Below are positions 476 to 45,631 of a stretch of 64,000 bases of DNA, one piece after another. This stretch comes from Candidatus Daviesbacteria bacterium. GTDB lineage: Bacteria; Patescibacteriota; Microgenomatia; Daviesbacterales; UBA10151. The notes under the pieces were generated by a model. It saw nothing but the letters and a program-made list of their open reading frames with translations. It was not told the origin of the DNA and searched no databases. The stretch spans positions 4,466 through 68,465 of the forward strand of contig JAUSHE010000014.1 of assembly GCA_030648435.1 (NCBI GenBank), given 5' to 3'. The position numbers and the translations under genes were made by a program. Positions within the stretch are counted from its first letter, which is position 1. Each line of letters opens with the position of its first letter.

Positions 476-1201
476 ATGAAAGGCGTTGTATTAGCAGGAG
501 GTTTAGGAACAAGGCTTTATCCTTTAACAAAGGTTACCAATAAACATCTTTTGCCGGTTTATAATAAACCGATGATTTTTTATCCGATTGAAACATTAGT
601 TAAGGCAGGTATTACCGATATTATGGTAGTAACCGGCGGTCCCCACTCCGGTCATTTTTTATCAATCTTAAAAAACGGAGAAGAACTTGGCATTAAACAT
701 CTGGAATATGCTTATCAGGAAAAAGAAGGAGGAATTGCGGATGCCCTATCATTAGCAAGGGAATTTGCGGAAGGTGATAGTGTGACGGTAATTTTGGGAG
801 ATAATACCTCGGATGCGGATATTGCCGAATCGGTTCGGAATTTCAAAGAAGGAGCGCTGATATTCTTAAAAGAAGTTTCAGACCCGGAACGCTTTGGCAT
901 TGCGACTTTCGATCCAGCAGATCCTTCAAAGATCATAAAAATTACAGAGAAACCACAGAATCCGGATTCAAAAATGGCTGTCACAGGAGTTTATATCTAC
1001 GATAAACAGGTTTTTGATTTTATAGATCAAATTAACCCTTCCGGAAGAGGAGAATTAGAAATTACGGATGTGAATAATAAATATGTGGAAAAAGGACAGC
1101 TTAAATGGAGCGAGCTTAAAGGTTATTGGTGGGATGCAGGTACTTTTGATACTTTACTTCAGGCTAATAACTATTGGGCAAAAAAGGCGAAGACAAAATG
1201 A
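476..1201 (+). CDS. rmlA: Glucose-1-phosphate thymidylyltransferase, short-form sugar nucleotidyltransferase (RmlA-like).
   Basis: N-terminal GxGTRLxPLT motif (MKGVVLAGGLGTRLYPLT). It is the first of four coupled rml genes. At 241 aa it is shorter than the canonical ~290 aa RmlA. Confidence 0.75.
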   Translation: MKGVVLAGGLGTRLYPLTKVTNKHLLPVYNKPMIFYPIETLVKAGITDIMVVTGGPHSGHFLSILKNGEELGIKHLEYAYQEKEGGIADALSLAREFAEGDSVTVILGDNTSDADIAESVRNFKEGALIFLKEVSDPERFGIATFDPADPSKIIKITEKPQNPDSKMAVTGVYIYDKQVFDFIDQINPSGRGELEITDVNNKYVEKGQLKWSELKGYWWDAGTFDTLLQANNYWAKKAKTK

Positions 1202-2199
1202 AGATTTTGGTTACTGGCGGAGCCGGATTCATTGGCTCAAATTTTATTCATTACTGGATCAAGACCCATCCGGAAGATGAAATAATAAATTTAGACGTCC
1301 TAACTTATGCCGGTCATCCGGAAAGCCTTAAAGATTTGGAGGGAAACCAAAATTATAAGTTTATAAAAGGTGATATTACTGATGCGGAAGTAGTTAAGCA
1401 AGCCATGGAGGGAGTAGATACGGTGGTTCATTATGCTGCAGAATCACATGTTGACCGTTCAATTGTTGATCCATTAGCTTTTGTCAAAACAAATGTTTTA
1501 GGTACAGCAGTGCTGTTAAACAGCGCCCTTGACGGCAAGATTAAAAGATTTCACCACATCTCTTCAGATGAAGTTTATGGGGAATTGGGACTACAAGATG
1601 CACCGTTCAACGAAAACACACCTTACAGTCCGAGGACTCCTTATTCCGCCTCAAAAGCAGGTTCAGACCATTTGGTGAGGGCTTATTTTGAAACATATGG
1701 ATTACCGGTGACGATCAGTAATTGCGCCAATAATTACGGCCCTTTCCATGATCCGGAAAAATTGATTCCGAGATTTATTACCAATCTCTTGCAAGGAGAG
1801 AAGGTGCCTTTAATGGGGAAGGGAGAAAATATCCGCGAATGGCTGCATGTTGAGGATCACGCTGAGGCGGTTGATTTTATTCTGCAAAAAGGGCAACTGG
1901 GAGAAACTTATTTGATTGAGGGCGAGGAAAAAACAAATCTGGATATAACCAAAAAGCTGCTTGAGATTTTAGGGCTTGATGAGTCTGTGATTAAATTTGT
2001 TGAGCATAGATTAGGTCATGATTTCCGCTATGCAATAAACGGAGATAAACTGAAAGCTTTAGGGTGGATCAGAAAACATAATTTAACGGAAGATCTGCCG
2101 AAAGTTGTTGAATGGTATAAACAAAACGAGTGGTGGTGGAAGCCTCTGAAACAAGGCAGGCCCAACATTGACCGATTAGCACAAAAATCATATGGATAA
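1198..2199 (+). CDS. rmlB: dTDP-glucose 4,6-dehydratase.
   Basis: N-terminal Rossmann motif [14 protein letters not shown] and a YSASKAGSD (YxxxK) active-site motif, about 334 aa. I moved the start to the ATG at 1198, which overlaps the rmlA stop as ATGA, instead of the track's 1174. Confidence 0.9.
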   Translation: MKILVTGGAGFIGSNFIHYWIKTHPEDEIINLDVLTYAGHPESLKDLEGNQNYKFIKGDITDAEVVKQAMEGVDTVVHYAAESHVDRSIVDPLAFVKTNVLGTAVLLNSALDGKIKRFHHISSDEVYGELGLQDAPFNENTPYSPRTPYSASKAGSDHLVRAYFETYGLPVTISNCANNYGPFHDPEKLIPRFITNLLQGEKVPLMGKGENIREWLHVEDHAEAVDFILQKGQLGETYLIEGEEKTNLDITKKLLEILGLDESVIKFVEHRLGHDFRYAINGDKLKALGWIRKHNLTEDLPKVVEWYKQNEWWWKPLKQGRPNIDRLAQKSYG

Positions 2200-2740
2200 A
2201 TATATTAAAACTACATCAATTGCAGGATTATTAATACTGGAGTGGCCGACTTTTGAGGATGAACGGGGATTTTTTAAAGAAGTATTTCATCTTGATGAAT
2301 TGCAGCAAGCGCTGGGATATGAATTTAAACCTGTTCAATGGAATCATTCAAAATCAAAACCCGGTGTGCTGCGGGGTCAGCACGCCGAAAATTGGAATAA
2401 GCTAATTTATCCGGTAACCGGAGAGTTGTTTGCCAGTGTAGTTGATATTAGGGTTGATTCTGTAACTTTTGGTAAGTATGAAACTTTTACATTTAACAAT
2501 GAAAATAGATGTGCCCTTTTTATTCCAAAAGGTATGGCTAATTCTTTTTGTGTTACAGGTAAGGAAGATGTCAATTATCTTTATTTAGTTGACGCTTATT
2601 GGGACGGTTCAGATACTAAGGCAATTGCCTGGGATGATCCTGATATAAATATAAAATGGCCTATTGAAAATCCGATAATTTCGGAGAGGGACAAAAATAA
2701 TCCCAAGTTAAGAGAGCTTCTTCCGGAGAAATTTAAATGA
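2192..2740 (+). CDS. rmlC: dTDP-4-dehydrorhamnose 3,5-epimerase (cupin).
   Basis: 182 aa, cupin-sized, with a GVLRGQHAE core. It sits between rmlB and rmlD and overlaps both neighbours. Confidence 0.8.
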   Translation: MDKYIKTTSIAGLLILEWPTFEDERGFFKEVFHLDELQQALGYEFKPVQWNHSKSKPGVLRGQHAENWNKLIYPVTGELFASVVDIRVDSVTFGKYETFTFNNENRCALFIPKGMANSFCVTGKEDVNYLYLVDAYWDGSDTKAIAWDDPDINIKWPIENPIISERDKNNPKLRELLPEKFK

Positions 2741-3630
2741 AAAAAGTATTGGTATTTGGCGGGGCCGGTTTAGTAGGTTCCAAATTTATTGATTTAAATT
2801 CTCAAAAATTTGAAATAAATGCACCTAACGTTTCAGAGCTGGATATTTTAGACAAATGTCAGGTTCTAAAACGAATGGAGCGATTTAATCCTGATGCAGT
2901 TGTGAATTTTGCTGCTTTTACTAATGTGGGAGCGGCTGAAGACCAGAAAGGTGATGAAAACGGGATATGTTTTCAAATAAATGCAATTGGAGCTAAAAAT
3001 GTGGCTGAGGGTGCCAGGGATTCCAATAAATACTTAATACATATTTCAACAGAGTATGTTTTTGACGGCACTAAAGCTAACGGTCCATACAAAGAAGAAG
3101 ATAAACAAAATCCCATTAACTGGTACGGAGAAACAAAGTATTACGGTGAACAGTTTGTCATGGAAAGCCATTGTCCTTTGGGCTTAGTCAGAATTTGTAT
3201 GCCATTTTCTCCTTTTTATGAATTAAAAAAAGATATTGCAAGATATTTTCTTGATGAGTTGAAAACAGGGAATCAAATAAAAGCCATTGAAGATCAGAAA
3301 GTGACTCCCACTTTGGTTTCAGATATTGCGGATGCCATTTACACCCTGATTAATAATCAAGCTCAAGGAATTTATCATGTTTGTTCAAAAGATTCGATTA
3401 CCCCGTTTGAATTTGCCAAATCAATCGCTAAAATCTTTAATTTAGACGGTTCCTTGGTACAGCCGGTTACTTTTGAGGAATACAATAAAAACAAAAAAGG
3501 CAAACTGTTAAAAAATTCCTGGTTGGGTTGTGAAAAATTTATTTCGAAATTTGGAGACAATATTTTACACAAAATAGAAGAAAGTTTAGAGATATTTAAA
3601 AAAGAAACTATTGACGGATCTAGTGTATAA
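2737..3630 (+). CDS. rmlD: dTDP-4-dehydrorhamnose reductase.
   Basis: 297 aa with an N-terminal VFGGAGLVGS NAD(P)-binding motif. ATGA overlap with rmlC. It occupies the expected position in the rml set. Confidence 0.75.
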   Translation: MKKVLVFGGAGLVGSKFIDLNSQKFEINAPNVSELDILDKCQVLKRMERFNPDAVVNFAAFTNVGAAEDQKGDENGICFQINAIGAKNVAEGARDSNKYLIHISTEYVFDGTKANGPYKEEDKQNPINWYGETKYYGEQFVMESHCPLGLVRICMPFSPFYELKKDIARYFLDELKTGNQIKAIEDQKVTPTLVSDIADAIYTLINNQAQGIYHVCSKDSITPFEFAKSIAKIFNLDGSLVQPVTFEEYNKNKKGKLLKNSWLGCEKFISKFGDNILHKIEESLEIFKKETIDGSSV

Positions 3631-3648
3631 TAGATATATTGACCAAAT

Positions 3649-4662
3649 ATGGCAAACAAAAAAGCATTTATTACAGGAATTTCAGGACAGGATGGTTCGT
3701 ATTTAAGTGAACTTCTTTTAAGCAAGGGATATGAGATAGCGGGTTTTGTCCGTAGAAATGCGGCATTGGATTTTGGAAATGCCAATGAAATAAAAGACGA
3801 AATAAAAATTTATTACGGTGATCTGCATTCTCCGGAATCTATTGCTTTGGCACTGCTAGATTTTAAGCCTGATGAGATATATAATCTGGCATCACTATCT
3901 TCCCCACTGGGATCATTTAAAGATAAATTCGGAACGATTATGGTAACCGGCATAGGGGCACTCAATGTATTTGAACGTGCCAAACAAATTGTTCCTGATG
4001 CCAGAATCTATCAGGCCTCAACTTCTGAAATGTTTGGGGCTCCCACACAGGTACCTCAAAACGAAGATACTCCTTTTGCTCCTGCCAATCCTTACGCTGC
4101 TGCTAAAGAATTTGCTCATAGGATGGCAGTAATTGCCAGGCATGATAAAAATCAGCCGCAATTTATTGCCTGCGGCATTTTATTTAATCATGAAAGTCCA
4201 AGACGGGGTTTAAATTTTGTCACCAGAAAAATTTCGGCTGCTGTAGCCTGCATAAAGAATGAAAAAAAGTTCGGCGTGCCATTAAACGAGATAGGCAAAC
4301 CAATTGTAGAAAACGGTAAACTAAAATTAGGTGATCTTGAGGCAAAAAGAGACTGGGGCTATGCTGTTGATTATGTAGGGTTGATGTGGATGATGCTTCA
4401 ACACGACATTGCAGATGATTTTGTGGCTGCCACGGGCGAGGTGCATACGGTCGGGGAATTTGCCAAAGAAGCTTTTGCAGTTGTTGGCTTAAACTGGGAG
4501 GACTTCGTAGAAACTGATTCTCATTTTATTCCCCCCGTACAAACAGGACCGCTGTGTGGGGATGCCTCAAAGGCTAAAAAAATCTTAGGTTGGGAGCCAA
4601 GAACCAAATTTAAAGATTTAGTGAAAATTATGGTTCATGCTGATTTAGCCAAATTTTCTTAA
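3649..4662 (+). CDS. gmd: GDP-mannose 4,6-dehydratase.
   Basis: N-terminal ITGISGQDGSYLSELLL matches the Gmd signature. 337 aa. Confidence 0.9.
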   Translation: MANKKAFITGISGQDGSYLSELLLSKGYEIAGFVRRNAALDFGNANEIKDEIKIYYGDLHSPESIALALLDFKPDEIYNLASLSSPLGSFKDKFGTIMVTGIGALNVFERAKQIVPDARIYQASTSEMFGAPTQVPQNEDTPFAPANPYAAAKEFAHRMAVIARHDKNQPQFIACGILFNHESPRRGLNFVTRKISAAVACIKNEKKFGVPLNEIGKPIVENGKLKLGDLEAKRDWGYAVDYVGLMWMMLQHDIADDFVAATGEVHTVGEFAKEAFAVVGLNWEDFVETDSHFIPPVQTGPLCGDASKAKKILGWEPRTKFKDLVKIMVHADLAKFS

Positions 4663-5843
4663 TGAAGATAGTATCCGTTGTGCTCCCTACTTATAACGAA
4701 AAAGCAAATGTTGCCCGTACTATTGAAAAAGTGCTGGAGCAGGAAAAAAATCTACCCGGCTGGGAAATTCATATTATTGTGGCAGATGATATCCGCACCT
4801 CTGACGGTACGGAAGAAATTGTTCGCAAGTTACTTGCGAATCAAAGAATACATTTTATTAAAACAGAACCTGGTCTAGGGGTTGGTTTGATTGAAGGGCA
4901 CCGGTATGCTTTGCAAAAGCTACGGCCTGATGTTTTGGCGCAACTTGATGCTGACGGTCAGGTAGTGCCTGATGTTTTAGTAAAACTGGTTAAAACCATA
5001 GAAGATGGTTACTCTCTGGCAATAGGTTCCAGATTTGTGAGCGGTGGAAAAAATCAATTAGCTTTAGTAAGAAGGATATTCAGTTTAGGCGCCTCGGTGT
5101 TTTACAGAGCTTTGGTTGGACCCTGGGATATTAAGGAAGTAACAAATTCGGCTAGGGCATTTACTCCAGAACTATTTAAAAAAATAAATTTAGATAGGTT
5201 ACCCTGGAAAGAAAAGACTTTTATTGTTCAGCCGGCCTTTTTACATGAAGCAATTTTAGCAGGAGCCAAATATAAGGAAGTACCGTTAATATTCCGTAAC
5301 CGTTTAGAAGGTTATTCCAAAAATAAGGTTTTTAATTATACTTATGATGTAATTACTTATTCTTTGGATGTAAGATTACATATGTCAGGAGTGAATTTTC
5401 CTTTTTTCCGTCTGGCAGGCAGGGCAAAAACTTTAGTTAAGTTTAGTTTAGTAGGAGCAGTCGGGACTGCGGTGGACTTTTTCTTCTACAAAGTATTTAT
5501 TAATTATTTAGGTCTAAATCCTGCTACATCAAAGGGTTTTTCCACGGAGATTGCTATTATAAATAATTTTATGCTCAATAATTATTGGACTTTTAGATAC
5601 CGCAAAACTAAAACAAATGCTTGGCAGAAATTAGGGATATTTAATTTGGTAAGTATGGGAGGGCTTGTTATGGCAGTTTTGATTGTTAAGTTTTTGCATA
5701 TATATTATGGAGATGGATCTATTAATCTTTTTGGCCGGTCTGTTGCTTACAATAACTTTTTCTTTTTTGCGACAATCCCTCCGGTAATGTTGTGGAACTT
5801 TACGGTAAACCATTTTATTACATGGCGGCATAATGACGATTAA
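4662..5843 (+). CDS. GT2 polyprenyl-phosphate glycosyltransferase (Dpm1/ArnC-like) fused to a C-terminal GtrA-like 4-TM domain.
   Basis: N-terminal VSVVLPTYNE...IVADD GT-A motif. The C-terminal region (FSLVGAVGTAVDFFFYKVFINYLG...NNFMLNNYWTFRY) resembles the GtrA family. Confidence 0.8.
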   Translation: MKIVSVVLPTYNEKANVARTIEKVLEQEKNLPGWEIHIIVADDIRTSDGTEEIVRKLLANQRIHFIKTEPGLGVGLIEGHRYALQKLRPDVLAQLDADGQVVPDVLVKLVKTIEDGYSLAIGSRFVSGGKNQLALVRRIFSLGASVFYRALVGPWDIKEVTNSARAFTPELFKKINLDRLPWKEKTFIVQPAFLHEAILAGAKYKEVPLIFRNRLEGYSKNKVFNYTYDVITYSLDVRLHMSGVNFPFFRLAGRAKTLVKFSLVGAVGTAVDFFFYKVFINYLGLNPATSKGFSTEIAIINNFMLNNYWTFRYRKTKTNAWQKLGIFNLVSMGGLVMAVLIVKFLHIYYGDGSINLFGRSVAYNNFFFFATIPPVMLWNFTVNHFITWRHNDD

Positions 5844-6970
5844 TTGAATAACTGGAGGTTTGGTATCGGAGCTGTATTGTTTAATATAAAATTCTGGGCG
5901 TAGAAATAAATAGCAAGTAATATTATTGGCAAAATTATTTTAAATTCCCGGCTGGTTAAAACTTTTTCAAAAGCGATTAAGACAAATGGGGCAATAGGGA
6001 GAAGGTAGCGGCTGATATCCCGGTGGACTACCAAAGTGGCGGCTCCAAGATAGATCAGGACAAAGAAGGCCATAGGGTAAAGTTTTTGTTTCAAAAGCAT
6101 TACCCCTCCCAGAAGTCCCATTATAAAGATATAGATTATATCTTCCAGCCAGATATCCCCTACCCAAAACTGAAACTTGTTGAAAACCTGGAAAGGAGGG
6201 AATGTTAAATGGATGTTGTCTCCGCTTTTGAAATATGCCCAAAAATCCCCGTAAGTTTGATTGAAGAGAAAAAATACTCCAAGCAATCCAAGCGGAATTA
6301 TGATTAAAGGAAAATATTTTAAACGGATTTTTCTGAAAGCTAAGATATAAAATACCAAAGCTGTAAAAAGTAATATGCCCGGCGGTCTGGTAATTTGGGC
6401 CAGCAGCCCAAAAATTCCCGCGGAAAAGATATAAATAAATTTCTGATTAGTTTCAAATTTCATAAAGAAATAGATTGCGGTGATAATAAAAAAGATAAAA
6501 GCGGGTTCTGATGATCCCACACTGTGTACAATTGTCCACCTGGCAGGAAGAATCAGGAAAATAAAGCTTAGAAAAAGCGGATGGGCGCTTAGTTTAAAAT
6601 CCCGGATTAGAAAATAAAAGGCAGAAACAGCAAGTACGGTAGAAAGCAGCGACACAAACAGCATTGATTTCAAAAAACCTAAAAATGGCGCAAAGAGTAA
6701 AATTGCCATGGCATATCCCGGGAAATGGGAAGCAAAATAAGAGGCAGGTAAAGACTGCGGAAGCGCACTTATTATTTGAGGATCATAAAAGCTTTTGGCA
6801 ATGATCAGATATTCTAACCCGTCAAAATTGCGGTAAATGACGGAAAACCCCTCTTTAAAAGATAAACCCCAGAAATTTGGTAAAGATAGTATGTGGGGCA
6901 GCCATATTAGAGCGGTTATGCCTATGGTTAGTCCCGCCAAAATACTTAAATCTTTGAATTTGTTGCTCAC
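5840..6970 (-). CDS. Polytopic membrane protein, GT-C candidate with a PIG-V/Mannosyl_trans2-like motif.
   Basis: 376 aa and highly hydrophobic. The FDGLEYLIIAKSFY...HFPGYA motif resembles the FDGVHYLRIAQNGY...AFFPLYP motif of ORF 41008 and the GPI mannosyltransferase-2 family. It is the only - strand gene inside the + array. Confidence 0.45.
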   Translation of the reverse strand: MSNKFKDLSILAGLTIGITALIWLPHILSLPNFWGLSFKEGFSVIYRNFDGLEYLIIAKSFYDPQIISALPQSLPASYFASHFPGYAMAILLFAPFLGFLKSMLFVSLLSTVLAVSAFYFLIRDFKLSAHPLFLSFIFLILPARWTIVHSVGSSEPAFIFFIITAIYFFMKFETNQKFIYIFSAGIFGLLAQITRPPGILLFTALVFYILAFRKIRLKYFPLIIIPLGLLGVFFLFNQTYGDFWAYFKSGDNIHLTFPPFQVFNKFQFWVGDIWLEDIIYIFIMGLLGGVMLLKQKLYPMAFFVLIYLGAATLVVHRDISRYLLPIAPFVLIAFEKVLTSREFKIILPIILLAIYFYAQNFILNNTAPIPNLQLFN

Positions 6971-6993
6971 TAGTTTATTATATACGTAAACTT

Positions 6994-9150
6994 ATGATTA
7001 ACAATCTTTCGGTTTTTTTTCCTTGTATTAATGAAGAGGGGAACATTGAAAATACTGTCAGTAAGGCGGAAAAAGTTTTGAAACGCCTTAAGGTTAACTA
7101 TGAAATTATCATAATTGATGACGGTTCAACAGATTCTACAGGCAGGATTGCAGATAAGCTGGTCCGGGAAAATCCCAATATCAGGGTGATTCATCATCCA
7201 AAAAATTTAGGTTACGGAGAAGCTTTAAAATCCGGTTTTTATAATGCTAAATATGACACCATAGTTTATACGGACGGTGACGGACAGTTTGATTTTTCAG
7301 AGATTTATAAATTTTTAGAGAAAATAAAAGATAACGATCTGGTGATAGGTTACAGAATAAAAAGGCAGGATTCGCTGGTAAGAAGGTTTTTTGGTAAGGG
7401 TTGGAGATTAACACTGCTTGCCCTTTTTGGACTGACTTTAAAGGATGTTGACTGCGGTTTTAAGATGGTTAGGAAAAGTGTTTTGGAAAAAGTGCCGCAC
7501 CTTGAATCTCAAAGAGGAGCAATGATAAATGCGGAACTTGCAATTAAAGCAAAAAAATACGGCTTTAAAGTAGGTCAAGTAGGAGTAAATCATTATCCCA
7601 GATTATCCGGTAGGCCAACGGGTGCAAACATTAAAGTGATTATTAAATCTTATGTAGATCTTATGAGATTATGGTGGGAATTGAAGGATCAAAAAATTAC
7701 ACTTTTTGTACTAATCGGAATACTGGTACTGGCGGTATTTTTAAGATTTTATAGATTATCGGATTACATGACTTTTCTGGGAGATGAAGGAAGAGATGCG
7801 ATTATTGTCAGGGATATTCTGAAGGGGGTAAATTTTCCCTTAATCGGGCCGCCGACTTCAGTAGGAAATATCTACTTAGGCCCTCTCTATTACTACATGA
7901 TGACATTGCCAATGGCAATCTTTAATCTTAATCCTACAGCCGCTGCAGGCATGAATGCGTTTTTGGGGGTGGTGACAATTATTTTAATCTATTATTTGGG
8001 TAAAAGTTGGTTTGGTAGATATGCCGGCTTAATAGCAGCTTATCTATATGCCATATCACCGGTGACCATTATTTATTCACGGTCTTCCTGGAATCCGAAT
8101 CCTACTCCTTTCTTTGCCACAGTTGCCATAATTAGTTTGTACAAGCTGAATAAAACAGGTAATTTCTTATGGCTTACTTTGACCGGCTTAGCAATTGGAG
8201 CGGCGCTGCAGATGCATTATCTGGCAGCAATATTAATACCTGTTGCCGGTATTTTATGGTTATACGAAATCTTGATTAGAAAATATTGTCACCTAAAAGT
8301 TAAAAACTTGATTAGCGGAACTTTATTGGGGATATGTTCATTTGTTTTAACAATGCTGCCACTGGTTTTTTTCGACTTAAAACATAATCTCTTAAACTAC
8401 AGGGCAATTATTAAGTTATTCAGCGAAGGAAGTGCTGTTAAGGCTGATATATTTGCAAATATCGGACGGATGCCTCTTCTTTATTCAAATAATCTGGTGG
8501 GAAGATATATTAGCGGTGAGAATTTTTATTTAACAATTACAGTTTCATTATTAATCATAATCGCACTTCTATACAAATGGAATTCCTGGCCCAGGATTAC
8601 TTTAGGAGTTTGGTTAATTGTTGGGCTTTTTGGATTAGCTTTTTATCAACAGAGTATATACGATCATTATTTAGGATTTTTAAATCCCGCTCCTTTTTTA
8701 CTTTTGGGATCTATAGCTACAGTCAAAGTTTTTAATAAACAAATTACTTATATTGGTTTGACAGTAATATTGCTGTTTTTATCAGTAGTGAATTTGCAGA
8801 AAACCCCTTTACTTTATCCGCCAAATCATCAACTTGCAAGAACACAAGAAGTAGCAAAATTTATAATTGATAAAACAAATAATAAAGATTTTAATTTTGC
8901 CTTAATTGCCAAAAGCAATTATGATTCTGCTTACCAATTTTATTTGGATTTATATGGGTTTAAACCTAAACAAGTACCATTTGATAAAACAAATCAGCTT
9001 TTTGTGGTTTGCGAGGATCCGGTTTGTGATCCAACACATAGTGCAAAATATGAAATAGCTGCTTTTGGTTGGTCCAGAATTGACTGGCAGAGAGATTTTA
9101 ATGGGATTAAGATATATAGATTAATACCTAATCCATCCGGAAAACCATGA
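6994..9150 (+). CDS. Fusion protein with an N-terminal GT2 polyprenyl-phosphate glycosyltransferase domain and a C-terminal PMT_2/ArnT-like GT-C membrane domain.
   Basis: Residues 1-230 carry a Dpm1-like GT-A domain (LSVFFPCINEEGNIE, IIIDDGSTDST, DGDGQFD). Residues ~240-718 are polytopic, with a GDEGRDA motif in the first extracytoplasmic loop as in the GT39/GT83 family. Confidence 0.75.
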   Translation: MINNLSVFFPCINEEGNIENTVSKAEKVLKRLKVNYEIIIIDDGSTDSTGRIADKLVRENPNIRVIHHPKNLGYGEALKSGFYNAKYDTIVYTDGDGQFDFSEIYKFLEKIKDNDLVIGYRIKRQDSLVRRFFGKGWRLTLLALFGLTLKDVDCGFKMVRKSVLEKVPHLESQRGAMINAELAIKAKKYGFKVGQVGVNHYPRLSGRPTGANIKVIIKSYVDLMRLWWELKDQKITLFVLIGILVLAVFLRFYRLSDYMTFLGDEGRDAIIVRDILKGVNFPLIGPPTSVGNIYLGPLYYYMMTLPMAIFNLNPTAAAGMNAFLGVVTIILIYYLGKSWFGRYAGLIAAYLYAISPVTIIYSRSSWNPNPTPFFATVAIISLYKLNKTGNFLWLTLTGLAIGAALQMHYLAAILIPVAGILWLYEILIRKYCHLKVKNLISGTLLGICSFVLTMLPLVFFDLKHNLLNYRAIIKLFSEGSAVKADIFANIGRMPLLYSNNLVGRYISGENFYLTITVSLLIIIALLYKWNSWPRITLGVWLIVGLFGLAFYQQSIYDHYLGFLNPAPFLLLGSIATVKVFNKQITYIGLTVILLFLSVVNLQKTPLLYPPNHQLARTQEVAKFIIDKTNNKDFNFALIAKSNYDSAYQFYLDLYGFKPKQVPFDKTNQLFVVCEDPVCDPTHSAKYEIAAFGWSRIDWQRDFNGIKIYRLIPNPSGKP

Positions 9151-9878
9151 ATAAATTATCAGTTGTAATACCTTCATATAACGAATCAGCCAACCTAAAG
9201 AAAGGGGTGCTATCTGGTATTGCAGAATACATGGATAATTTAAAAATCGCGTACGAAGTGATTATTGTGGATGACGGATCAACTGATGATTCGGTAATGC
9301 TTGTTAAAAAATTTCAGGGAAAAAATTTTAGGTTAATTCAAAATAATCATGGTGGAAAAGCAAAAGCTGTTTTAACCGGAATGATGGCAGCGCAGGGGGA
9401 AATTGTGCTTTTTACCGACATGGATCAGGCAACACCTATAAATCAGATTGAAAAATTTATACCAAAATTTGACGAAGGATTTGATATTGTGATCGGATCC
9501 CGTCATGGTAGAAAAGGAGCGCCTTTGGTTAGAAAATTATCAGCCTGGGGTTTTTCTTTCTTGCGGGGTATTATTTTGGGGCTGCCGTTTGCAGATACCC
9601 AGTGTGGCTTTAAGGCTTTTAACAGGCAGTCGGTTCATAAAATTATTCCAAAAATTAAGAATGAGTGGGGAGTAGTGCATTTTAAAGGTGGTGCAGTTAA
9701 TGCCGGATTTGATGTAGAGGTTTTGTACCTTGCCAAGAAATACGGCTTTAAAATTGTTGAAGTTCCGGTGGAATGGAAATATGTGGATACGGAAAGAGTG
9801 CAGGTTGTTAAAGATGCTTTGGCCGCGATTTATGATATGCTCAGAATCAGATGGAATGATCTGACCGGAAAATACTGA
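9147..9878 (+). CDS. GT2 polyprenyl-phosphate glycosyltransferase (Dpm1/ArnC-like).
   Basis: LSVVIPSYNE, VIIVDDGSTDDS and TDMDQ motifs. 243 aa. ATGA overlap with the upstream gene. Confidence 0.8.
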   Translation: MNKLSVVIPSYNESANLKKGVLSGIAEYMDNLKIAYEVIIVDDGSTDDSVMLVKKFQGKNFRLIQNNHGGKAKAVLTGMMAAQGEIVLFTDMDQATPINQIEKFIPKFDEGFDIVIGSRHGRKGAPLVRKLSAWGFSFLRGIILGLPFADTQCGFKAFNRQSVHKIIPKIKNEWGVVHFKGGAVNAGFDVEVLYLAKKYGFKIVEVPVEWKYVDTERVQVVKDALAAIYDMLRIRWNDLTGKY

Positions 9879-9890
9879 TATAATACACTT

Positions 9891-11414
9891 GTGAACTTTC
9901 TTCTAAAACATCGTCTGGAAATTTTGATCCTTGCATTGTTGGCAGTTGCTTACTTTATCATTAGGTTGCCTAATTTAACGCTGCAGCCTATTTTTGCGGA
10001 TGAGGCGATATATATCAGATGGGCTCAGGTGATGAGAGCAGAGCAGACATTGCGTTTTTTACCTTTATCTGACGGTAAGACGCCGCTCTTTATGTGGGCT
10101 ATGATGCCGATGCTCAAATTTATTCAGGATCCGCTTTTAGCCGGAAGGTTGTTATCCGTAATCTCGGGTTTTACCACTTTGATGGGGGTATTTTTCTTAT
10201 CAAGGAAGATCTTCAATTTAAGAACTGCTGTATGGGCGGGTTTGCTTTATGTGATTACGCCTTATACTGTTTTTTTTGATAGGATGGCTTTAGTTGATTC
10301 AATGCTGTCTGCATTTACAGTTTGGGTTGTTTATTTTAGTCTTTGGCTTGTGCGTGCTTTACGGTTGGATATATCTATGATTTTAGGATTCTTGATGGGA
10401 GGAGCAATTTTAACAAAAACCCCCGGCATGTTTAATCTTTTTCTCCTGCCGATTGCCACGATAGCTTTTAGAAGAGAAAAAGATAAAAAGAACTCTTTAA
10501 TTAGACTTCTTGTTTTGCTGGGTGTAGCAATTATGATCGCTCTTCTTGCCTATAACTTTCTTAGATTGGGCCCGAATTTTCAGTTGTTATCTTCTCGGAA
10601 TGCGGATTATATCTTTTCCCCTTTTGAACTGATTGGTAGGCCCCTTGATCCTTTTATCCCTCATTTTCATGACATTGCCGATTGGTTCCCAAAGCTTTTG
10701 ACATGGCCTATCCTGTTATCAGCGGTAATTGGGACGGTATATACCATATACGGAGTTTTCCAGTATTCTTTCAGGGGTCAATATTTACCACGTTTAGTTA
10801 TTTTGCTTTGGGGAATTTTACCGATTCTTGTAAATATGGCATTTTTAAAAACTTTTACAGCCCGTTATTTACTGTCTTCGATTCCTCTTTTTCTGGTAAT
10901 TGCCGGCTTCGGAGTCACTAAAATTCTTCCTCCACTTGCGTATATAAAAAAACTTCCGCTTTTTATTATGTTTATTGTTTTGCTGCCGCTCCCTTTATAT
11001 TTTAATTATTTATTGCTTACATCACCGGAAAAAGCTCCTTTACCGAGAGAAGAACGAGCAGGTTATTTTGAAGAATGGACAGCCGGTTACGGATTTGCCG
11101 ATATTGCAGCTTTTCTAATAGAGAAAAATAAAGAAAATAGAGTGGTCCTCGGGACTGAAGGTTTTTTTGGTACTTTGCCCGATGGCCTTTATATTTATCT
11201 GGATAAGGCAAATATTTCTATCGTAGGTTCTCATGCAACAATTTCAGCTCAAATTAGAAATGCTGCAAAAGATAATTTGACCTATTTTATCGGAAACAAA
11301 AAAAATCTAAAAGGAAGCATTGATAATGTAAAATTGATTTTAGAGTACCCAAAGGCAAAACCGAAAAACGGCTCGATGCAGGATGCCACAGTTCTATATC
11401 AGGTATTGCCATAA
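9891..11414 (+). CDS. GT-C fold glycosyltransferase, ArnT/PMT_2-like.
   Basis: GTG start. 507 aa and polytopic, with an ADEAIYIRWAQ motif after the first TM as in the ArnT-type DE motif. Confidence 0.65.
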   Translation: MNFLLKHRLEILILALLAVAYFIIRLPNLTLQPIFADEAIYIRWAQVMRAEQTLRFLPLSDGKTPLFMWAMMPMLKFIQDPLLAGRLLSVISGFTTLMGVFFLSRKIFNLRTAVWAGLLYVITPYTVFFDRMALVDSMLSAFTVWVVYFSLWLVRALRLDISMILGFLMGGAILTKTPGMFNLFLLPIATIAFRREKDKKNSLIRLLVLLGVAIMIALLAYNFLRLGPNFQLLSSRNADYIFSPFELIGRPLDPFIPHFHDIADWFPKLLTWPILLSAVIGTVYTIYGVFQYSFRGQYLPRLVILLWGILPILVNMAFLKTFTARYLLSSIPLFLVIAGFGVTKILPPLAYIKKLPLFIMFIVLLPLPLYFNYLLLTSPEKAPLPREERAGYFEEWTAGYGFADIAAFLIEKNKENRVVLGTEGFFGTLPDGLYIYLDKANISIVGSHATISAQIRNAAKDNLTYFIGNKKNLKGSIDNVKLILEYPKAKPKNGSMQDATVLYQVLP

Positions 11415-11416
11415 AT

Positions 11417-13147
11417 ATGCTGCACTTTCTAGAGAACAGATCCTATAAATTCTGGGTAATTCTGACTTTAATATTTACTATCCCAACTTTTTATCAATTA
11501 ATTAGTCCTGGTTTTTTCTTTATGCAGGATGATCTGCAGGCCATGAGGATACATCAGATGTTCCGATGCTTTCAGGACTTTCAGCTGCCTTGCAGATGGG
11601 TTCCTGATATGGGTTATCAATATGGCTATCCACAGTTTCTATTTTATCCTCCAGGTGTTTATTATCTTGGTGCTCTATTTCACCTTTTGGGTGTTCAGAT
11701 TATAGATAGTGTAAAATTGATGTTTATCTTAGGTTATATCTTCTCAACGCTTTTTATGTTTATTTTTTTAAAAGCTTTTTTCGACGGGGAATCCAAGCAA
11801 AAGAATTTCATATATACAACCTTGCCGGCTTTTTTCGGAGCGATGCTTTATACTTATATTCCCTATAAAGCGCTGGAAGTATATGTCAGAGGGGCTTTAA
11901 ACGAATTCTGGAGTTTAGTTTTTTTCCCATTCATTTTTTGGGCAATTTATCAATTAATAAGTAAACAAAAATTAAAGTTTCTTTTATTTCTTGCACTTTC
12001 CATCGCCGGATTGCTGCTTACTCATAATCTAATGACTCTTATTTTTGCGCCGCTAATAATAATATGGTGTATTAGTTTGGTTGTTTTAAAGAAAAGTTGG
12101 AGGGTTGTTCCTAAAATTTTTCTCGGAGGTCTTTTGGGGATAGGTCTTGCAGCATTTTTTACCCTTCCAGTAATTTTTGAAGGAAAGTATGTTCATCTGG
12201 AATCTCTATTGGGTGGTTATTTTGATTACAGAGCGCATTTTGTTTCAATTAATAGGCTTTTTGTATCAAATCTTTTTGGCTACGGTTCATCAGGGATCGG
12301 ACAGGATAATAATTTAACTTTATCAACAGGACAAATCCAATGGATCGTTGCTTTGATTGGACTAATTCTATCCCCCTTTCTTTTATATAAACAAAAGAAT
12401 ATAGCGATTTTAATAATGATATTTTCTGTTTTAGAACTTGGAGTTTTATTTATGATTCATCAAAAGTCATCATTTATTTGGGAGAAGCTACCGATTTTGG
12501 CTTATTTGCAATTTCCTTGGAGATTTTTATCTGACAGCATTTTCATTCTTTCGTTTTTGGGCGCAATAACAGCTTTCTTTATTAGTCAAATAAACAAAAA
12601 TTTTGCAAAAATATTTATAATTACTGTTTTAATCGGAATCCTTGTATTGCATGCGTCATTTTTTCAACCTAAAGAGCGTTTTGGGATTTCCGATAAGGAT
12701 AAATTTTCCGGCTTTTTTTGGGAAAAACAATTAACAATCAGCATTTTTGATTATCTGCCGATATATGCCAAACTCCCGCCTAATAAAAAAGCGCCGTTGC
12801 TGCCGGAAATTCTGGAAGGGGATGTAAACTTTATAAGTTATCAAAAAGGAAGCAATTATCAATTTGGAGAAGTCAAGGTTCTTAAAAACTCTGTTATAAG
12901 ACTGCCGCTTCTTGATTTTCCGGGTATGAGAGTTACGGTAGATGGAAAAGTAGTTGAACATCAAAATAATGATTGTAGGGGAGAAGAATTCTGTTTTGGT
13001 TTAATAACATTTAATTTACCAACAGGCTCACATTTCATAAAAGTAAAACTGGAGGATACGCAAGTCAGAACCATAGGTAATATAATTAGCTTGATATCAG
13101 CGACAGTGCTTTTATTTCTGCTGATTAAAAACTATGGAAAGAAATAA
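11417..13147 (+). CDS. Paralog 1 of an unassigned GT-C-like family with a DD...CRWVPD...YGYP signature and a C-terminal soluble domain.
   Basis: 576 aa. QDDLQAMRIHQM follows the first TM, then C...LPCRWVPDMGYQYGYP and YVRGALNEF, with a C-terminal FPGMRVTVDGK region. These motifs are shared with the ORFs at 13134, 14776 and 17680. Confidence 0.6.
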   Translation: MLHFLENRSYKFWVILTLIFTIPTFYQLISPGFFFMQDDLQAMRIHQMFRCFQDFQLPCRWVPDMGYQYGYPQFLFYPPGVYYLGALFHLLGVQIIDSVKLMFILGYIFSTLFMFIFLKAFFDGESKQKNFIYTTLPAFFGAMLYTYIPYKALEVYVRGALNEFWSLVFFPFIFWAIYQLISKQKLKFLLFLALSIAGLLLTHNLMTLIFAPLIIIWCISLVVLKKSWRVVPKIFLGGLLGIGLAAFFTLPVIFEGKYVHLESLLGGYFDYRAHFVSINRLFVSNLFGYGSSGIGQDNNLTLSTGQIQWIVALIGLILSPFLLYKQKNIAILIMIFSVLELGVLFMIHQKSSFIWEKLPILAYLQFPWRFLSDSIFILSFLGAITAFFISQINKNFAKIFIITVLIGILVLHASFFQPKERFGISDKDKFSGFFWEKQLTISIFDYLPIYAKLPPNKKAPLLPEILEGDVNFISYQKGSNYQFGEVKVLKNSVIRLPLLDFPGMRVTVDGKVVEHQNNDCRGEEFCFGLITFNLPTGSHFIKVKLEDTQVRTIGNIISLISATVLLFLLIKNYGKK

Positions 13148-14804: not shown

Positions 14805-16419
14805 ATATTGGTTTTTAATCATATGTCTTTTATCGTTTCCGGCTATACGGGCGCTTTTTGTAAGTGGTTATTTTGGGGCGTCAGATGATATGCATATTGC
14901 CTGGCTTTACGAGATAGATAAGATAATCAAATTGGGACAAATCCCGCCGCGGTTTGTGCCGGATTTGAGTTTTGGTTTCGGATACCCCCTGTTTAACTTT
15001 GTTTTTCCGCTTCCGTTTTATATCGGTGAGATTTTTCATTTGCTGGGATTATCTTTTGTAGATAGTATAAAGGCTGTTTTTTTAATTAGCGTACCGCTGT
15101 CAGGGATATTCATGTATTTACTGCTCCGGCAATTCGTGGAAAGGAACTTAAGTCTAATAGGGGCAGTTTTGTATATTTATACACCATACCGGTCTGTAGA
15201 TTTGTATGTCAGGGGAGCAATAGGGGAGATCGTGGGTTTTGTGTTTTTGCCGTTAATAATTCTCTCTGCCGCAAAAATTTTCGCTAAAGGTAATTTTAAG
15301 TGGATAGGAATTGGTGCTTTATCAATTGCTTCCCTAGTGTTGTCGCATAATATAGCGGCATACATGTTTTTTCCGTTTGTTGGATTTTTACTTATTATTC
15401 AATTTTTTTTAACTCCACTAAAAAAAGAATATATTACAAAAGCATTTCTAATGATTTTTTTAGGTCTTCTTACAAGTATTTATTTCTGGCTGCCTGCTTT
15501 AACAGAGAGTAATCTGGTAAAGCAAGATACCGTATTTAATTTTGCGGATCATTTCCCGACTCTTTTACAGCTAATTAGGCCTTATTGGGGGTATGGGGCC
15601 TCTGTACCTGGTCCGTATGATGGCATGTCTTTTTTTCTGGGAATAGCGAATATCTTACTTTTATTTTCAGGGATTTGTTTGTTTATATTTAGGTGGAAGC
15701 AAATTAGTATTCAAAGGAAGGTATTTATTGGGTGGGTTTTGGGTGTTATTACGGTGGCAATTTTTCTAATGAATTACCGCTCGACTATTATATGGAATAA
15801 TTTTCCGTTTCTTGCTTATTTTCAATTCCCCTGGAGATTTTTGATTTTGACAACATTTTTTATACCGTTATTACTTATTATTTTTGACAAGATAAGGATT
15901 AATAATTTATTATTGACGATTTTATTATTGCTTATCATCATATCAAGTATGTCTTATTTCAGACCGCAGGATTTTTTGGGAAGATTAGATAATTATTATC
16001 TTAATCGTTATATTCCAACTCCCGCTGCAAGCAAAGAATATCTGCAACTTCAGGAGGAATATTTAAGGCTTCCGAAAGCTGCCGAGAGTAGGCCGGATAA
16101 AAATTATCCAATGGTTTTTCCAGACAGTGGAATAATAAAGGTGAATAAGCGTAGTGATTTAGATGTGGTTATTGAATCTAATTCGAATGTAGAAAGTTTA
16201 ATTAATTTAAATAAATATTATTTTCCGGGCTGGAAGGCAAAGATTGATGGTAAAAAAATGGATATTTGGGCAGGTAAACCTTTCGGACAGATAAGTTTTT
16301 CTATGCCTGCAGGCTATCATAAAGCAGAAATATATTTTACTGAAACAACCTTTAGGAGCTTATTAAACTTTGCTTCACTGGGTGCATTTTTAGTATCATT
16401 AGTAGTGTTATCATTATGA
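14776..16419 (+). CDS. Paralog 3 of the DD...RWVPD family (GT-C-like), lacking the cysteine pair.
   Basis: The track start is TTG at 14761. I prefer the ATG at 14776. SDDMHIAWLYEI, IPPRFVPDLSFGFGYP, YVRGAIGEI and C-terminal FPGWKAKIDGKK. Confidence 0.55.
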   Translation: MKKVEEIISKYWFLIICLLSFPAIRALFVSGYFGASDDMHIAWLYEIDKIIKLGQIPPRFVPDLSFGFGYPLFNFVFPLPFYIGEIFHLLGLSFVDSIKAVFLISVPLSGIFMYLLLRQFVERNLSLIGAVLYIYTPYRSVDLYVRGAIGEIVGFVFLPLIILSAAKIFAKGNFKWIGIGALSIASLVLSHNIAAYMFFPFVGFLLIIQFFLTPLKKEYITKAFLMIFLGLLTSIYFWLPALTESNLVKQDTVFNFADHFPTLLQLIRPYWGYGASVPGPYDGMSFFLGIANILLLFSGICLFIFRWKQISIQRKVFIGWVLGVITVAIFLMNYRSTIIWNNFPFLAYFQFPWRFLILTTFFIPLLLIIFDKIRINNLLLTILLLLIIISSMSYFRPQDFLGRLDNYYLNRYIPTPAASKEYLQLQEEYLRLPKAAESRPDKNYPMVFPDSGIIKVNKRSDLDVVIESNSNVESLINLNKYYFPGWKAKIDGKKMDIWAGKPFGQISFSMPAGYHKAEIYFTETTFRSLLNFASLGAFLVSLVVLSL

Positions 16420-17675
16420 ATTTTATAAAAAGACCGCTAGTTTTCATTTTACTTATAGGTATCATTATCAGATTTATTTTATCGGCTATAACATTCCATC
16501 CAGATATTATACATTTTGATCTGGCGGGATATGTATTAGGTAAAGGGAATTTTTTGAACTTCTATGATTATACTTATGGATTAGATAAAAATGATCCTGT
16601 TTTAAAAAATTATCCTGTTAATTTGTTTAATTATCCTCCGGCTGTTTATTTTTATGTCGGTAGTATGAATTGGATTTTCACCAGTCTAACTGAAAAAAAT
16701 TTCCATAATATGTTTTTGTTTGATTTTAAAAATACTTTAGGAAATATACAATTAAACTTTCATTTAATCCTGCTTAAGATTCCATACCTCCTTTTTGATG
16801 GTGCAATTGCGTATTTTTTGTATAACATTTTTTTGAATAAGAAAGAAAAGATTTTAGCGCTCGCTCTTTGGGTTTTTAATCCATGGGTTCTATATTCAAC
16901 ATATATGATGGGTCAATTTGATATTATTCCAACCGCTTTTGTAGTAAGCGCCTTGTATATAATCAAAAAAAATTACAATTTTAATAAAAAAATATTTATC
17001 GCAGTTGTTCTATTAGGAATTGGTGCGTCATTTAAAATATACCCATTATTATTTTTGTTACCAGTTGCCTTTCTTTTAAAAAAGCGATTCAATAAACTTC
17101 TGGCAATTATTTTAGGAATCTCTGTTTATGTGATAACAATCCTTCCATTTATCGGTTCTTCGGGGTTTCGGTCAACGGCACTACTTGCAAACCAAACCCT
17201 TAAAAGTTTATATGCCCAAATTCCAATTTCAGGAGGAGAAAGTATAATTTTATTTTTGGCATCCGTCGGCTTTTTTTATATTGTTTACCTTTATAGAGGA
17301 AAAGAAGTTGAAAATTTATGGCAGAGCTTTTTTATAATTATGCTTTTATTTTTTATCTTTACTCATTATCATCCACAATGGTTTTTATGGCTTACACCCT
17401 TTTTAATTTTTGAGCTTATTTATAGTAATTTTAAACATTTAATATTAATGGTTTTAATGGGGGTAAGTTTTTTAGGTGCTGTATTTTTATTTGAGCAGTC
17501 ATTAACCATAGGTTTATTTTCACCCCTAAACGCTGCTTTGTTTGATGGGCTTGATCTTTGGCGTCTGCTTCATATAAATATTGATCTTAATTTTGCAAGG
17601 AGTTTATTTCAAACTCTATTCGCATCAGTAGCAGTATATTTTATTTACTATTATTTTCCGAAAAAAATAGATTAA
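16416..17675 (+). CDS. Polytopic membrane protein, possibly GT87/DUF2029-like GT-C.
   Basis: 419 aa with about 10 hydrophobic segments and HPDIIHFDLAGY...NYPPAVYFY in the first loop. The family assignment is tentative. Confidence 0.4.
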   Translation: MNFIKRPLVFILLIGIIIRFILSAITFHPDIIHFDLAGYVLGKGNFLNFYDYTYGLDKNDPVLKNYPVNLFNYPPAVYFYVGSMNWIFTSLTEKNFHNMFLFDFKNTLGNIQLNFHLILLKIPYLLFDGAIAYFLYNIFLNKKEKILALALWVFNPWVLYSTYMMGQFDIIPTAFVVSALYIIKKNYNFNKKIFIAVVLLGIGASFKIYPLLFLLPVAFLLKKRFNKLLAIILGISVYVITILPFIGSSGFRSTALLANQTLKSLYAQIPISGGESIILFLASVGFFYIVYLYRGKEVENLWQSFFIIMLLFFIFTHYHPQWFLWLTPFLIFELIYSNFKHLILMVLMGVSFLGAVFLFEQSLTIGLFSPLNAALFDGLDLWRLLHINIDLNFARSLFQTLFASVAVYFIYYYFPKKID

Positions 17676-42202: not shown

Positions 42203-42862
42203 ATGAATATCTTTATTGTGATTCCGGTGTTTAATGAGAGTAAAAAGATTGAAGGGGTTTTGACTGATCTTAAAGGTTTAGGTCTTCCGATTATTGTTGT
42301 TGATGACGGATCTAAGGATTCTACTTTAGAGAAGGTAAAGAAGTTTCAGGTTACAGTATTGAGACATAGAATTAATCTGGGCAAGGGAGCTGCATTAAAA
42401 ACCGGTTGCGAAGTAGCCATCTCGATGGGTGCTGATGCAATAATAATGATGGATTCAGATGGGCAGCATAAGGGAGAAGACTTGCCTAAATTTATTAATG
42501 CGTTAGAAACTAAAAAAGTAGATATCGTTTTTGGTTCCAGAAATTTAAGTATGGGTGTGCCTTTAGTAAGATTTCTTGGAAATAAATTTGCCTCCGTCTT
42601 AATTGTATTGTTTTTCAAGATTTACGTTTCTGATTTAATTTGCGGATACCGGGCCTTAACGAAGAAAGCTTATATGCAAATGAATCTTAAGTCGTCTGGT
42701 TACGGGATCGAGACTGAGATGGTGGTGAAGGTAGCAAAATTGAAACTAAGATATTGCGAGATCCCCATTGAAACAATATACTATGATAGGTTTAAAGGAG
42801 TAACGATTATGGATGCTTTTGGTGTTTTATTTAATGTAGTTAAATGGAGAATTTTTAAATGA
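42203..42862 (+). CDS. GT2 polyprenyl-phosphate glycosyltransferase (Dpm1/ArnC-like).
   Basis: IFIVIPVFNE, IIVVDDGSKDST and MDSDGQH motifs. 219 aa. Confidence 0.8.
   Translation: MNIFIVIPVFNESKKIEGVLTDLKGLGLPIIVVDDGSKDSTLEKVKKFQVTVLRHRINLGKGAALKTGCEVAISMGADAIIMMDSDGQHKGEDLPKFINALETKKVDIVFGSRNLSMGVPLVRFLGNKFASVLIVLFFKIYVSDLICGYRALTKKAYMQMNLKSSGYGIETEMVVKVAKLKLRYCEIPIETIYYDRFKGVTIMDAFGVLFNVVKWRIFK

Positions 42863-43183: not shown

Positions 43184-45631
<2,448 letters not shown>

Follow-up and report, generated by a model that had tools for sequence, protein, structure and literature searches.

In three-component glycosylation systems, among them GtrB/GtrA/GtrC of Shigella phages, CsbB/GtcA/YfhO, GacI/GacK/GacL and PgfS/PgfM, a lipid-sugar synthase works on the inside of the membrane and a glycosyltransferase of the GT-C class on the outside, and the genes are clustered in a cell-envelope glycan locus. 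The pentofuranose systems are a further example (PMC11127046). GtrB and CsbB have transmembrane (TM) helices; GtrB and ArnC have two of their own at the C-terminus, PfDPMS has four, and a Gtr-type system is expected to include a dedicated flippase gene of the GtrA family. Other synthases lack TM helices and are encoded next to a membrane protein, as in WpsA/WpsB and GacI/GacJ, and natural GacJ–GacI fusions exist (PMC10821137). Fusion to a membrane partner is also found in Mycobacterium tuberculosis Ppm1 (Rv2051c), which joins domains D1 and D2 in one chain, whereas the Ppm2 and Ppm1 proteins of M. smegmatis are encoded by adjacent genes and interact (PMC3485146). Here we analyse a 64,000-nucleotide stretch of a Candidatus Daviesbacteria genome (assembly GCA_030648435.1, contig JAUSHE010000014.1; hereafter the window), in which the gene at 6994..9150 (+) encodes a synthase domain of the GT2 family and a GT-C transferase domain in a single chain of 718 amino acids (aa) plus stop.

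Genomes of the candidate phyla radiation (CPR) carry many GT-Cs, at least 14 in this window, together with several lipid-sugar synthases, and as a rule a synthase cannot be assigned to its GT-C. What is new here is that the same orthologue is fused in some related species and split in others, at a conserved position. This natural fusion, alternating with an overlapping two-gene form, answers the pairing question for one pair with no experiment needed. The known pathway logic is unchanged by the fusion. The fused proteins are already public under the generic label 'glycosyltransferase', and our literature search, limited to the literature available to search, found no paper describing a fusion of a GT2 synthase with a GT-C. 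The combination of Glycos_transf_2 and PMT_2 is listed among the Pfam architectures.

Compared with the three-component systems, the gene would follow the same inside/outside logic and likewise lies in an envelope-glycan locus, but here a single polypeptide combines synthase and GT-C, which in relatives may be an overlapping gene pair, and the synthase half has no TM helices, unlike GtrB and CsbB. It resembles Ppm1 in that a TM-less synthase and a polytopic partner are fused in some species and split in others. The partner in Ppm1 is, however, an N-terminal Lnt-type acyltransferase domain, whereas here it is a C-terminal GT-C, the presumed consumer of the lipid sugar, and Pfam gives no CN_hydrolase match in the fused protein. 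The likeness to GacI/GacJ, WpsA/WpsB and PpgS/Rv3632 lies in a synthase without TM helices that relies on a membrane protein encoded by a neighbour, an arrangement that the window also holds in the pair at 42203-43215; the partner in the fused gene is a GT-C of ~485 residues, in contrast to a DUF2304-type helper of ~120 residues.

A predicted synthase domain and a GT-C domain in one chain

According to the list of open reading frames (ORFs) and its translation, the gene is a single uninterrupted ORF with an ATG start. NCBI holds an identical protein, encoded on an 89.7-kb Daviesbacteria contig and named 'glycosyltransferase [Candidatus Daviesbacteria bacterium]', and both domains are present in at least 120 further protein clusters (formed at 90% identity) that are 63–76% identical to it over 98–100%, mostly 99–100%, of the length. 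Because the identical architecture recurs in at least 120 full-length clusters, a missing stop codon is excluded; the single polypeptide with no stop between its domains, as proposed in the original prediction made from the sequence, is borne out by the ORF, by these clusters and by the 55 of 80 related loci in which the gene is fused. Pfam assigns Glycos_transf_2 (PF00535) to aa 6–167 (E-value 3.4e-30; 105.6 bits against a cutoff of 23.3), PMT_2 to aa 297–430 (6.3e-12; 46.4 bits against 26.1) and PMT to aa 246–460 (8.6e-9; 35.8 bits against 22.7), so that both GT-C profiles score above their curated cutoffs. These domains, together with a natural gene break at residue ~230 in relatives, agree with the proposed division into 230 and ~480 residues. 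The whole chain was modelled with AlphaFold2 (AF2) from 48 orthologues, giving a mean predicted local distance difference test score (pLDDT) of 84.6 and a predicted TM-score (pTM) of 0.80.

The GT-A (GT2) catalytic domain covers aa 1–212 (6994..7629, +) and is of the polyprenyl-phosphate sugar synthase type by Pfam, PDB and Foldseek. Searching the PDB by sequence with aa 5–248 returned PfDPMS (5mlz; E-value 6e-16 to 5e-15), ArnC (4e-14 to ~1e-13) and GtrB (2e-13 to ~1e-12), and the best seven distinct PDB sequences are exclusively one of these three (5e-15 to 2e-12). By structure, the AF2 model gave the same answer, with Foldseek ranks 1–25 against the PDB all being ArnC, DPMS or GtrB (1e-11 to 1e-8). 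The suggestion that the N-terminal 230 residues form a Dpm1/ArnC-type GT-A domain is therefore supported, since all PDB sequence matches down to 1e-12 and the first 25 Foldseek matches are polyprenyl-phosphate glycosyltransferases. The predicted nucleotide-sugar and metal-binding DXD motif is D94-G95-D96 (7273..7281, +), followed by Q98, as judged from conservation and from the PfDPMS alignment, in which these residues match D89-A-D91 and Q93; D94, G95, D96, Q98, D151 and D153 are invariant among the 48 orthologues. The domain is followed by a predicted amphipathic juxtamembrane helix at aa 213–230 (IKVIIKSYVDLMRLWWEL; 7630..7683, +), which is helical in the AF2 model and aligns to the PfDPMS segment preceding the first TM helix. 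The AF2 model contains a further helix at aa 128–145 of the GT2 domain. A Kyte–Doolittle profile shows no hydrophobic segment before aa 235, and the GT2 half thus has no TM helices of its own. NCBIfam matches of the domain are many and generic for GT2 (PgaC, TuaG, EpsE and others), all far under their equivalog cutoffs. We infer from sequence that the GT2 half is a Dpm1/ArnC/GtrB-type synthase domain with the corresponding predicted activity, which the absence of TM helices does not exclude, because the TM-less synthases Ppm1-D2, GacI, WpsA and PpgS are known.

The second half (aa 235–718) starts with a polytopic GT-C membrane domain of ~12–13 predicted helices (aa 235–602; 7696..8799, +; Pfam, Foldseek and AF2). 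Its TM1 (aa 235–253; 7696..7752, +; Kyte–Doolittle peak 2.55), which would also be the sole membrane anchor of the GT2 domain, corresponds to helix 234–252 of the AF2 model, and the alignment with PfDPMS reaches the first TM helix of that enzyme, ending at aa 248. After TM1 the model has a pair of short helices in the loop, the GDEGRD motif and then ~12 more helices up to residue 602. The motif (aa 263–268; 7780..7797, +) lies in the first loop after TM1, and D264, 11 residues past TM1, is the candidate catalytic or substrate-binding Asp. G263, D264, G266, R267 and D268 are invariant in the 48 orthologues, and D264 and G266 are also invariant across 56 family members at 25–55% identity, among them 55 stand-alone representatives, where the consensus is FLGD(Q/E)GRD. 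Nearly all fused and split orthologues in a junction alignment of 51 sequences retain MTFLGDEGRD. Of the 'DE' loop motif named in the original prediction, the Asp holds but the Glu does not: E265 is Gln in most stand-alone relatives while D264 is invariant, so the conserved residue is the first Asp and not the pair. Other conserved positions are W366-N367-P368, Q406/H408/Y409 and D557-H558-Y559. The chain ends in a soluble alpha/beta domain (aa 603–718; 8800..9147, +; AF2, pLDDT 72–90), in which C673 and C678 are invariant among the 48 orthologues and which is predicted to lie outside the cell, as do the C-terminal domains of ArnT, PglB and AglB. Foldseek matched the GT-C part to ArnT (5f15; E-value 1.7e-7; TM-score 0.44 on the query and 0.56 on the target), AglB (7e9s), STT3, PglB (6gxc) and ALG12 (9s6t), with ArnT fitting best by TM-score. 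These matches, with PMT_2 and PMT above cutoff, uphold the claim that the C-terminal ~480 residues are a GT-C carrying GDEGRD.

The two halves meet at K231-D232-Q233-K234 (7684..7695, +), as located by comparing the window sequence with a split relative (locus L037) and by the alignment of 51 sequences. The window reads LWWELK-DQK-ITLF where L037 reads LWWKLH-stop-F-M-KS, and because the two junctions align in this way, the stop codon of the split form corresponds to D232 and its start Met to K234. A linker of three residues therefore leads from the amphipathic helix of GT2 straight into TM1. Since GT2 has no TM helix and this linker runs directly into TM1, the GT-C would serve as the membrane anchor of GT2. 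The order TM-less GT2, three-residue linker, TM1 and GDEGRD loop fits a model with GT2 inside and the GDEGRD loop outside. GT2 would be cytoplasmic because it is a nucleotide-sugar-using domain without a signal or TM segment; the loop after TM1 would therefore be outside, as in all GT-C enzymes, and with ~13 helices by the AF2 count the C-terminal domain would be outside too.

An echo of ArnC/ArnT had also been proposed for the pairing. As an analogy this is sound, with ArnC among the best N-terminal matches (E-value ~1e-13 by sequence and 1e-11 by Foldseek) and ArnT the best GT-C by TM-score, but membership in the Arn pathway does not follow. For the NCBIfam ArnC equivalog NF007986 the score is 65.4 bits, the cutoff being 529; ArnC is a separate protein with two TM helices, unlike the GT2 half here, and Pfam found no ArnA/B/D/E/F-type genes (no formyltransferase, deformylase or ArnE/F) among all window ORFs of at least 100 aa. 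The host is a monoderm-type CPR bacterium, and such bacteria generally have no lipid A. Another comparable pair, Agl22/Agl23 of Haloarcula hispanica, likewise combines a dolichyl-phosphate-hexose synthase with a GT-C-like polytopic protein, and both halves of the fused protein have weak NCBIfam matches to it. That pair is archaeal and dolichol-using, is not known to be fused, and its models score well under their cutoffs here (49.8 against 375 bits for NF041391 and 35.4 against 126.25 for TIGR03663). Membership in Arn, in Agl22/23 or in any NCBIfam equivalog is ruled out by the scores.

Fused and split orthologues in related genomes

We scanned 185,579 species genomes, of which 451 encode a relative, and analysed the best 80 loci, which come from Daviesbacteria, Amesbacteria, Woesebacteria and other Microgenomates, with ORFs called in all 80. 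The fusion is intact in 55 of them (39–76% identity). A two-gene form, consisting of a TM-less GT2 of 231–256 aa and a GT-C of ~455–562 aa, is found in 22, including two that are cut by contig ends (L047 and L078), and three of the 80 were assigned to neither form. The split pair lies at the same conserved position as the fused gene, its break always falls at residue ~230, and the split GT2 genes terminate just past LWW(K/E)L. The junctions themselves are diverse: the two genes overlap by 1, 4, 19, 35 or 53 nucleotides (nt), are joined by an in-frame TAG-NNN-ATG (L037, L055 and L057), or are separated by spacers of 9–111 nt, two of the overlaps (L067 and L074) being taken from ORF calls. Because the junctions vary between lineages, the split forms are genuine two-gene arrangements and not errors. 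The pattern was also seen outside the 80 loci, in an independent metagenome contig in which a stand-alone GT-C, 48% identical, is overlapped by an upstream GT2 of 236 aa in the same core gene order.

Fused and split forms are intermingled in a neighbour-joining (NJ) tree built from the concatenated sequences, which suggests a minimum of four or five changes between the two states, a number that is approximate because the tree carries no support values. The linkers differ among fused clades, with a conserved 13-residue linker in an Amesbacteria-like clade, yet are constant within each clade, and the fused state tracks phylogeny. Since both the split junctions and the linkers of the fused clades differ, fusion or fission would have occurred repeatedly. 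The fusion is real, conserved and recurrent in evolution. Fused and split forms of one orthologue are classic Rosetta-stone evidence: because the same protein recurs as a fusion and as an adjacent gene pair, the two halves almost certainly work together, and a functional pairing of synthase and GT-C is strongly supported. The pairing with this GT-C orthologue is retained in Daviesbacteria, Amesbacteria, Woesebacteria and Beckwithbacteria.

We also scanned 1.84 billion representative sequences with the GT-C half alone (HMMER, E-value at most 1e-30). Among the 488 matches, about 8 of the best 150 are fusions, in which the alignment begins at residue 231–252 of proteins of 708–741 aa; the remainder are stand-alone proteins of ~500 residues. 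The named fused representatives belong to Beckwithbacteria, Microgenomates and Patescibacteria. Distant members, at 27–35% identity, lie in GT-C arrays without an upstream GT2. With so few fusions and with distant members lacking the GT2, pairing as a general trait of this GT-C family is ruled out; because those distant members have no upstream GT2, pairing is a property of one orthologous group in Microgenomates.

Some related loci deviate from this picture in detail. In L030 (308-1828) the GT2 half is broken at residue ~160 and in L048 (7959-10258) it is in two pieces; each may be a pseudogene or reflect a sequencing error. Extra stand-alone GT-C genes lie between the fused gene and the usual pair of GT2 and GT-C in L039, L042, L046, L051, L053 and L056, and likewise in L062, L066, L068, L071, L073 and L076. 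These extra genes, one or two per locus in the Amesbacteria-like and neighbouring clades, encode proteins of 450–540 aa that are 22–33% identical to the fused GT-C domain, which points to a local duplication of the GT-C half. Many loci (L001, L002, L008, L009 and others) come from metagenome-assembled genome records titled 'uncultured Gammaproteobacteria' or 'Pseudomonadales'. Given their Daviesbacteria/Microgenomates gene order and 40–75% protein identity, these titles are almost certainly placeholders or wrong taxonomy.

Proposed mechanism and alternatives

The product of the gene is probably a membrane protein with two enzyme activities, one producing a lipid-linked monosaccharide and the other consuming it, in a pathway of the kind represented by GtrB/GtrC, ArnC/ArnT, CsbB/YfhO and GacI/GacL, and the likeliest arrangement is a TM-less synthase that is anchored by, and feeds, its own GT-C. 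The GT2 domain (aa 1–212, with the DXD motif at D94–D96) would load polyprenyl phosphate with a single sugar, taken from a nucleotide sugar, at the inner face of the membrane, where the amphipathic helices at ~128–145 and 213–230 are predicted to hold it. The GT-C would be its anchor, in the role that GacJ, WpsB, Rv3632, Ppm2 or DPM3 plays for other TM-less synthases. Once the polyprenyl-phosphate sugar has been flipped to the outer face, the GT-C, with D264 in its first outside loop, ~13 TM helices and an outside C-terminal domain, would take the flipped donor and move the sugar to an extracytoplasmic acceptor, with cell-wall glycans, proteins and lipids as candidates. Because the gene sits in a 64-kb glycan locus, the acceptor is probably an envelope glycan or glycoprotein. 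As to origin, the ancestor of the fused gene may have been two neighbouring genes with coupled translation, which became one when the stop codon between them was lost; in Microgenomates this would have happened more than once. The fused form would then be a covalent version of a synthase/GT-C complex, one that fixes the synthase for a single GT-C among the many of the locus. The fusion indicates that the TM-less synthase physically docks on its GT-C partner. It offers a single-chain target for studying membrane crossing and the hand-over from an inner-face synthase to an outer-face transferase, and an entry point to the almost unstudied envelope glycobiology of Microgenomates.

Several points weigh against this scheme. 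The fusion shows that the halves cooperate, but the substrate of the GT-C need not be exactly what its own GT2 makes, and in the Ppm1/Ppm2 precedent the membrane partner to which the synthase is fused does not consume its product (PMC3485146). The enzyme activities and the flipping step are inferred for this protein from its sequence. Neither single-sequence nor family-profile searches with the GT-C half gave a significant match to a solved GT-C; the best profile match was AglB at an E-value of 0.14, and the alignment of SRSSWNPNP to the N-D-H-H loop of AglB is only a hint. The GT-C assignment accordingly rests on the Pfam profiles and the predicted fold, and the parity of the helices, and thus the side of some conserved loops, is taken from the AF2 helix count. 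The number of fusion events is an approximation, as noted above. There is also no stand-alone GtrA-type flippase gene in the window, the sole GtrA_DPMS_TM match being the C-terminal domain of the gene at 4662-5843.

The same observations can be read in other ways. The GT-C-like domain might mainly anchor or activate the synthase and carry out its own reaction with a different donor, in which case the fusion would specify no pair of donor-maker and donor-user. This is suggested by a GT2 half that lacks TM helices and terminates in an amphipathic one, by TM-less synthases elsewhere that need unrelated membrane partners and are in some cases naturally fused to them, and by the other synthases of the locus, which could supply the GT-C. 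Yet an enzyme of ~485 residues and ~13 TM helices, whose loop Asp is invariant and whose outside domain is conserved, is more than anchoring alone requires; in the same genome a DUF2304 protein of 118 aa would serve as anchor beside another GT2, and the pairing has been kept with this very GT-C orthologue across four Microgenomates lineages. We consider this reading unlikely. A further possibility concerns the reaction of the GT2 domain, which might act on another acceptor at the cytoplasmic face, such as a polyprenyl-diphosphate oligosaccharide or a glycolipid, so that the protein would join an inside and an outside glycan step. The generic nature of PF00535 and of the many sub-cutoff NCBIfam matches leaves room for it. 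However, sequence and fold alike give polyprenyl-phosphate glycosyltransferases, and no other class, as the nearest relatives of solved structure, with an alignment that continues through the juxtamembrane helix; in its length of ~230 aa and its amphipathic helix at the C-terminus the domain also resembles the TM-less synthases PpgS, GacI and WpsA, making a different acceptor improbable. That the long ORF is an artefact of sequencing or assembly is scarcely credible: split forms do exist, and the in-frame TAG-NNN-ATG junction of three loci is nearly identical to the fused form, but at least 120 clusters and 55 species genomes from many studies are fused, with clade-constant linkers and a fused state that follows phylogeny, and on this evidence we rejected it.

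How the donor crosses the membrane invites a different set of readings. In an Agl23-like manner, the C-terminal domain might flip or scramble the polyprenyl-phosphate sugar, instead of or besides transferring it. The GT-C region weakly matches the NCBIfam model TIGR03663, 'flippase activity-associated protein Agl23' (E-value 6e-9), the GT2 domain matches the haloarchaeal dolichyl-phosphate hexose transferase model NF041391 (2e-13), and by Pfam no GtrA-type flippase gene accompanies the fused gene in the window. Agl23 has been reported as a flippase, the purified H. hispanica protein having translocated lipid-linked oligosaccharide in liposomes (PMC11182771). With 35.4 bits against a cutoff of 126.25, however, the protein is not a member of TIGR03663; the similarity is limited to the generic N-terminal GT-C module, and PMT_2 and PMT match at comparable E-values and above their own cutoffs. 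Transferases moreover typically have such an invariant Asp in the loop and a conserved domain on the outside, and candidate flippases are encoded nearby, in the GtrA-like domain of 4662-5843 and the Wzx-like gene at 18828-20300. A flippase function of this domain is thus doubtful. More speculatively, and with a low probability in our estimate, the fused protein, or the split complex, might be a self-contained make-flip-use machine in which the sugar is passed along the GT-C membrane domain with no separate flippase; if true, this would explain the missing GtrA gene, the three-residue linker that holds the active site of the synthase next to TM1 and the weak Agl23-like signal. The anchored synthase that feeds its own GT-C, with flipping as a separate step, is the arrangement we favour.

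Neighbouring genes and the glycan locus

The fused gene belongs to a conserved core, whose order in related loci is a synthase with GT2 and GtrA domains, then, on the opposite strand, a short GT-C, followed by the fused or split gene, a GT2 of ~245 aa and a GT-C of ~505 aa. The first of these genes in the window (4662..5843, +; 393 aa) encodes a GT2 fused to a GtrA/DPMS-type TM domain (Pfam Glycos_transf_2 and GtrA_DPMS_TM, the latter with an E-value of 2.2e-19; synteny) and would be a self-anchored synthase. The short GT-C (5840..6970, -; 376 aa, ~9 TM helices), divergent from the fused gene, was recognised by its TM count and synteny: this copy has no Pfam match in the window, its orthologues carry PF13231 (PMT_2) or the name 'glycosyltransferase family 39', and in almost all related genomes it lies directly upstream of the fused or split gene. 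The 4662-5843 gene (+) converges on it with a 4-nt overlap. Its GTG start at 6970 (-) and the ATG of the fused gene at 6994 are divergent and 23 bp apart (6971-6993), and because only 23 bp separate them, the promoters would lie inside coding sequence, or expression would be driven from further away.

On the downstream side, the ATG at 9147 overlaps the TGA of the fused gene as ATGA, which suggests translational coupling to a TM-less GT2 (9147..9878, +; 243 aa; Pfam, no TM segment, synteny), the predicted synthase of a second module. The predicted transferase of this module is a GT-C of 507 aa (9891..11414, +; Pfam PMT_2, E-value 8.8e-12; synteny). The original prediction took this pair for the unfused version of the same module, which does not hold. 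The downstream GT2 is 34% identical to the fused GT2 domain, the downstream GT-C aligns to the fused GT-C domain over 70 residues only (27% identity), and the closest paralogue of the latter in the window is elsewhere, at 34514-36121. In essentially every related genome, moreover, the downstream pair adjoins the fused or split gene; because it is present beside either form, the pair makes up a module of its own and not a redundant one. The same low identity, the barely alignable GT-Cs and the co-occurrence rule out its being a recent split or duplicate of the fused gene. The pair is the same kind of module by sequence, a paralogous TM-less GT2 followed by a PMT_2 protein, and the true unfused version is the split orthologue at the same position in other Microgenomates. 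The core thus holds three synthases and three GT-Cs, with the synthases in self-anchored, GT-C-fused and free formats.

By the Pfam assignments of its ORFs, the whole window (1-64000) is one envelope-glycan locus. The GT-C-type genes counted above start at 5840, 6994, 9891, 13134, 14761, 17680, 25708, 31394, 32882, 34514, 36118, 39535, 41008 and 50071. They are accompanied by about ten GT2 genes, two GT4 genes, the Wzx-like flippase gene, two rml gene sets (476-3630 and 54578-55971), two sugar C-methyltransferase genes (47574 and 55975), GDP-mannose-dehydratase-like genes and genes for other sugar-nucleotide enzymes. Four ORFs without a Pfam match are polytopic, with 8–14 predicted TM helices (11417-13147, 16416-17675, 20297-23692 and 23694-25721), and the ORF at 30160-31413 has no Pfam match either; all five may be divergent GT-Cs or polymerase-like enzymes. 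One of them, a protein of 1131 aa, starts with a signal-like segment at the N-terminus, which is followed by ~470 soluble residues and then ~13 TM helices. Further along, a PIG-V-like GT-C (41008-42192) is followed by a TM-less GT2 of 219 aa (42203-42862) and a DUF2304 membrane protein of 118 aa (42859-43215) whose gene overlaps that of the GT2. By analogy, this trio looks like a PpgS/Rv3632/Rv3779 or GacI/GacJ-type set of synthase, small membrane helper and GT-C.

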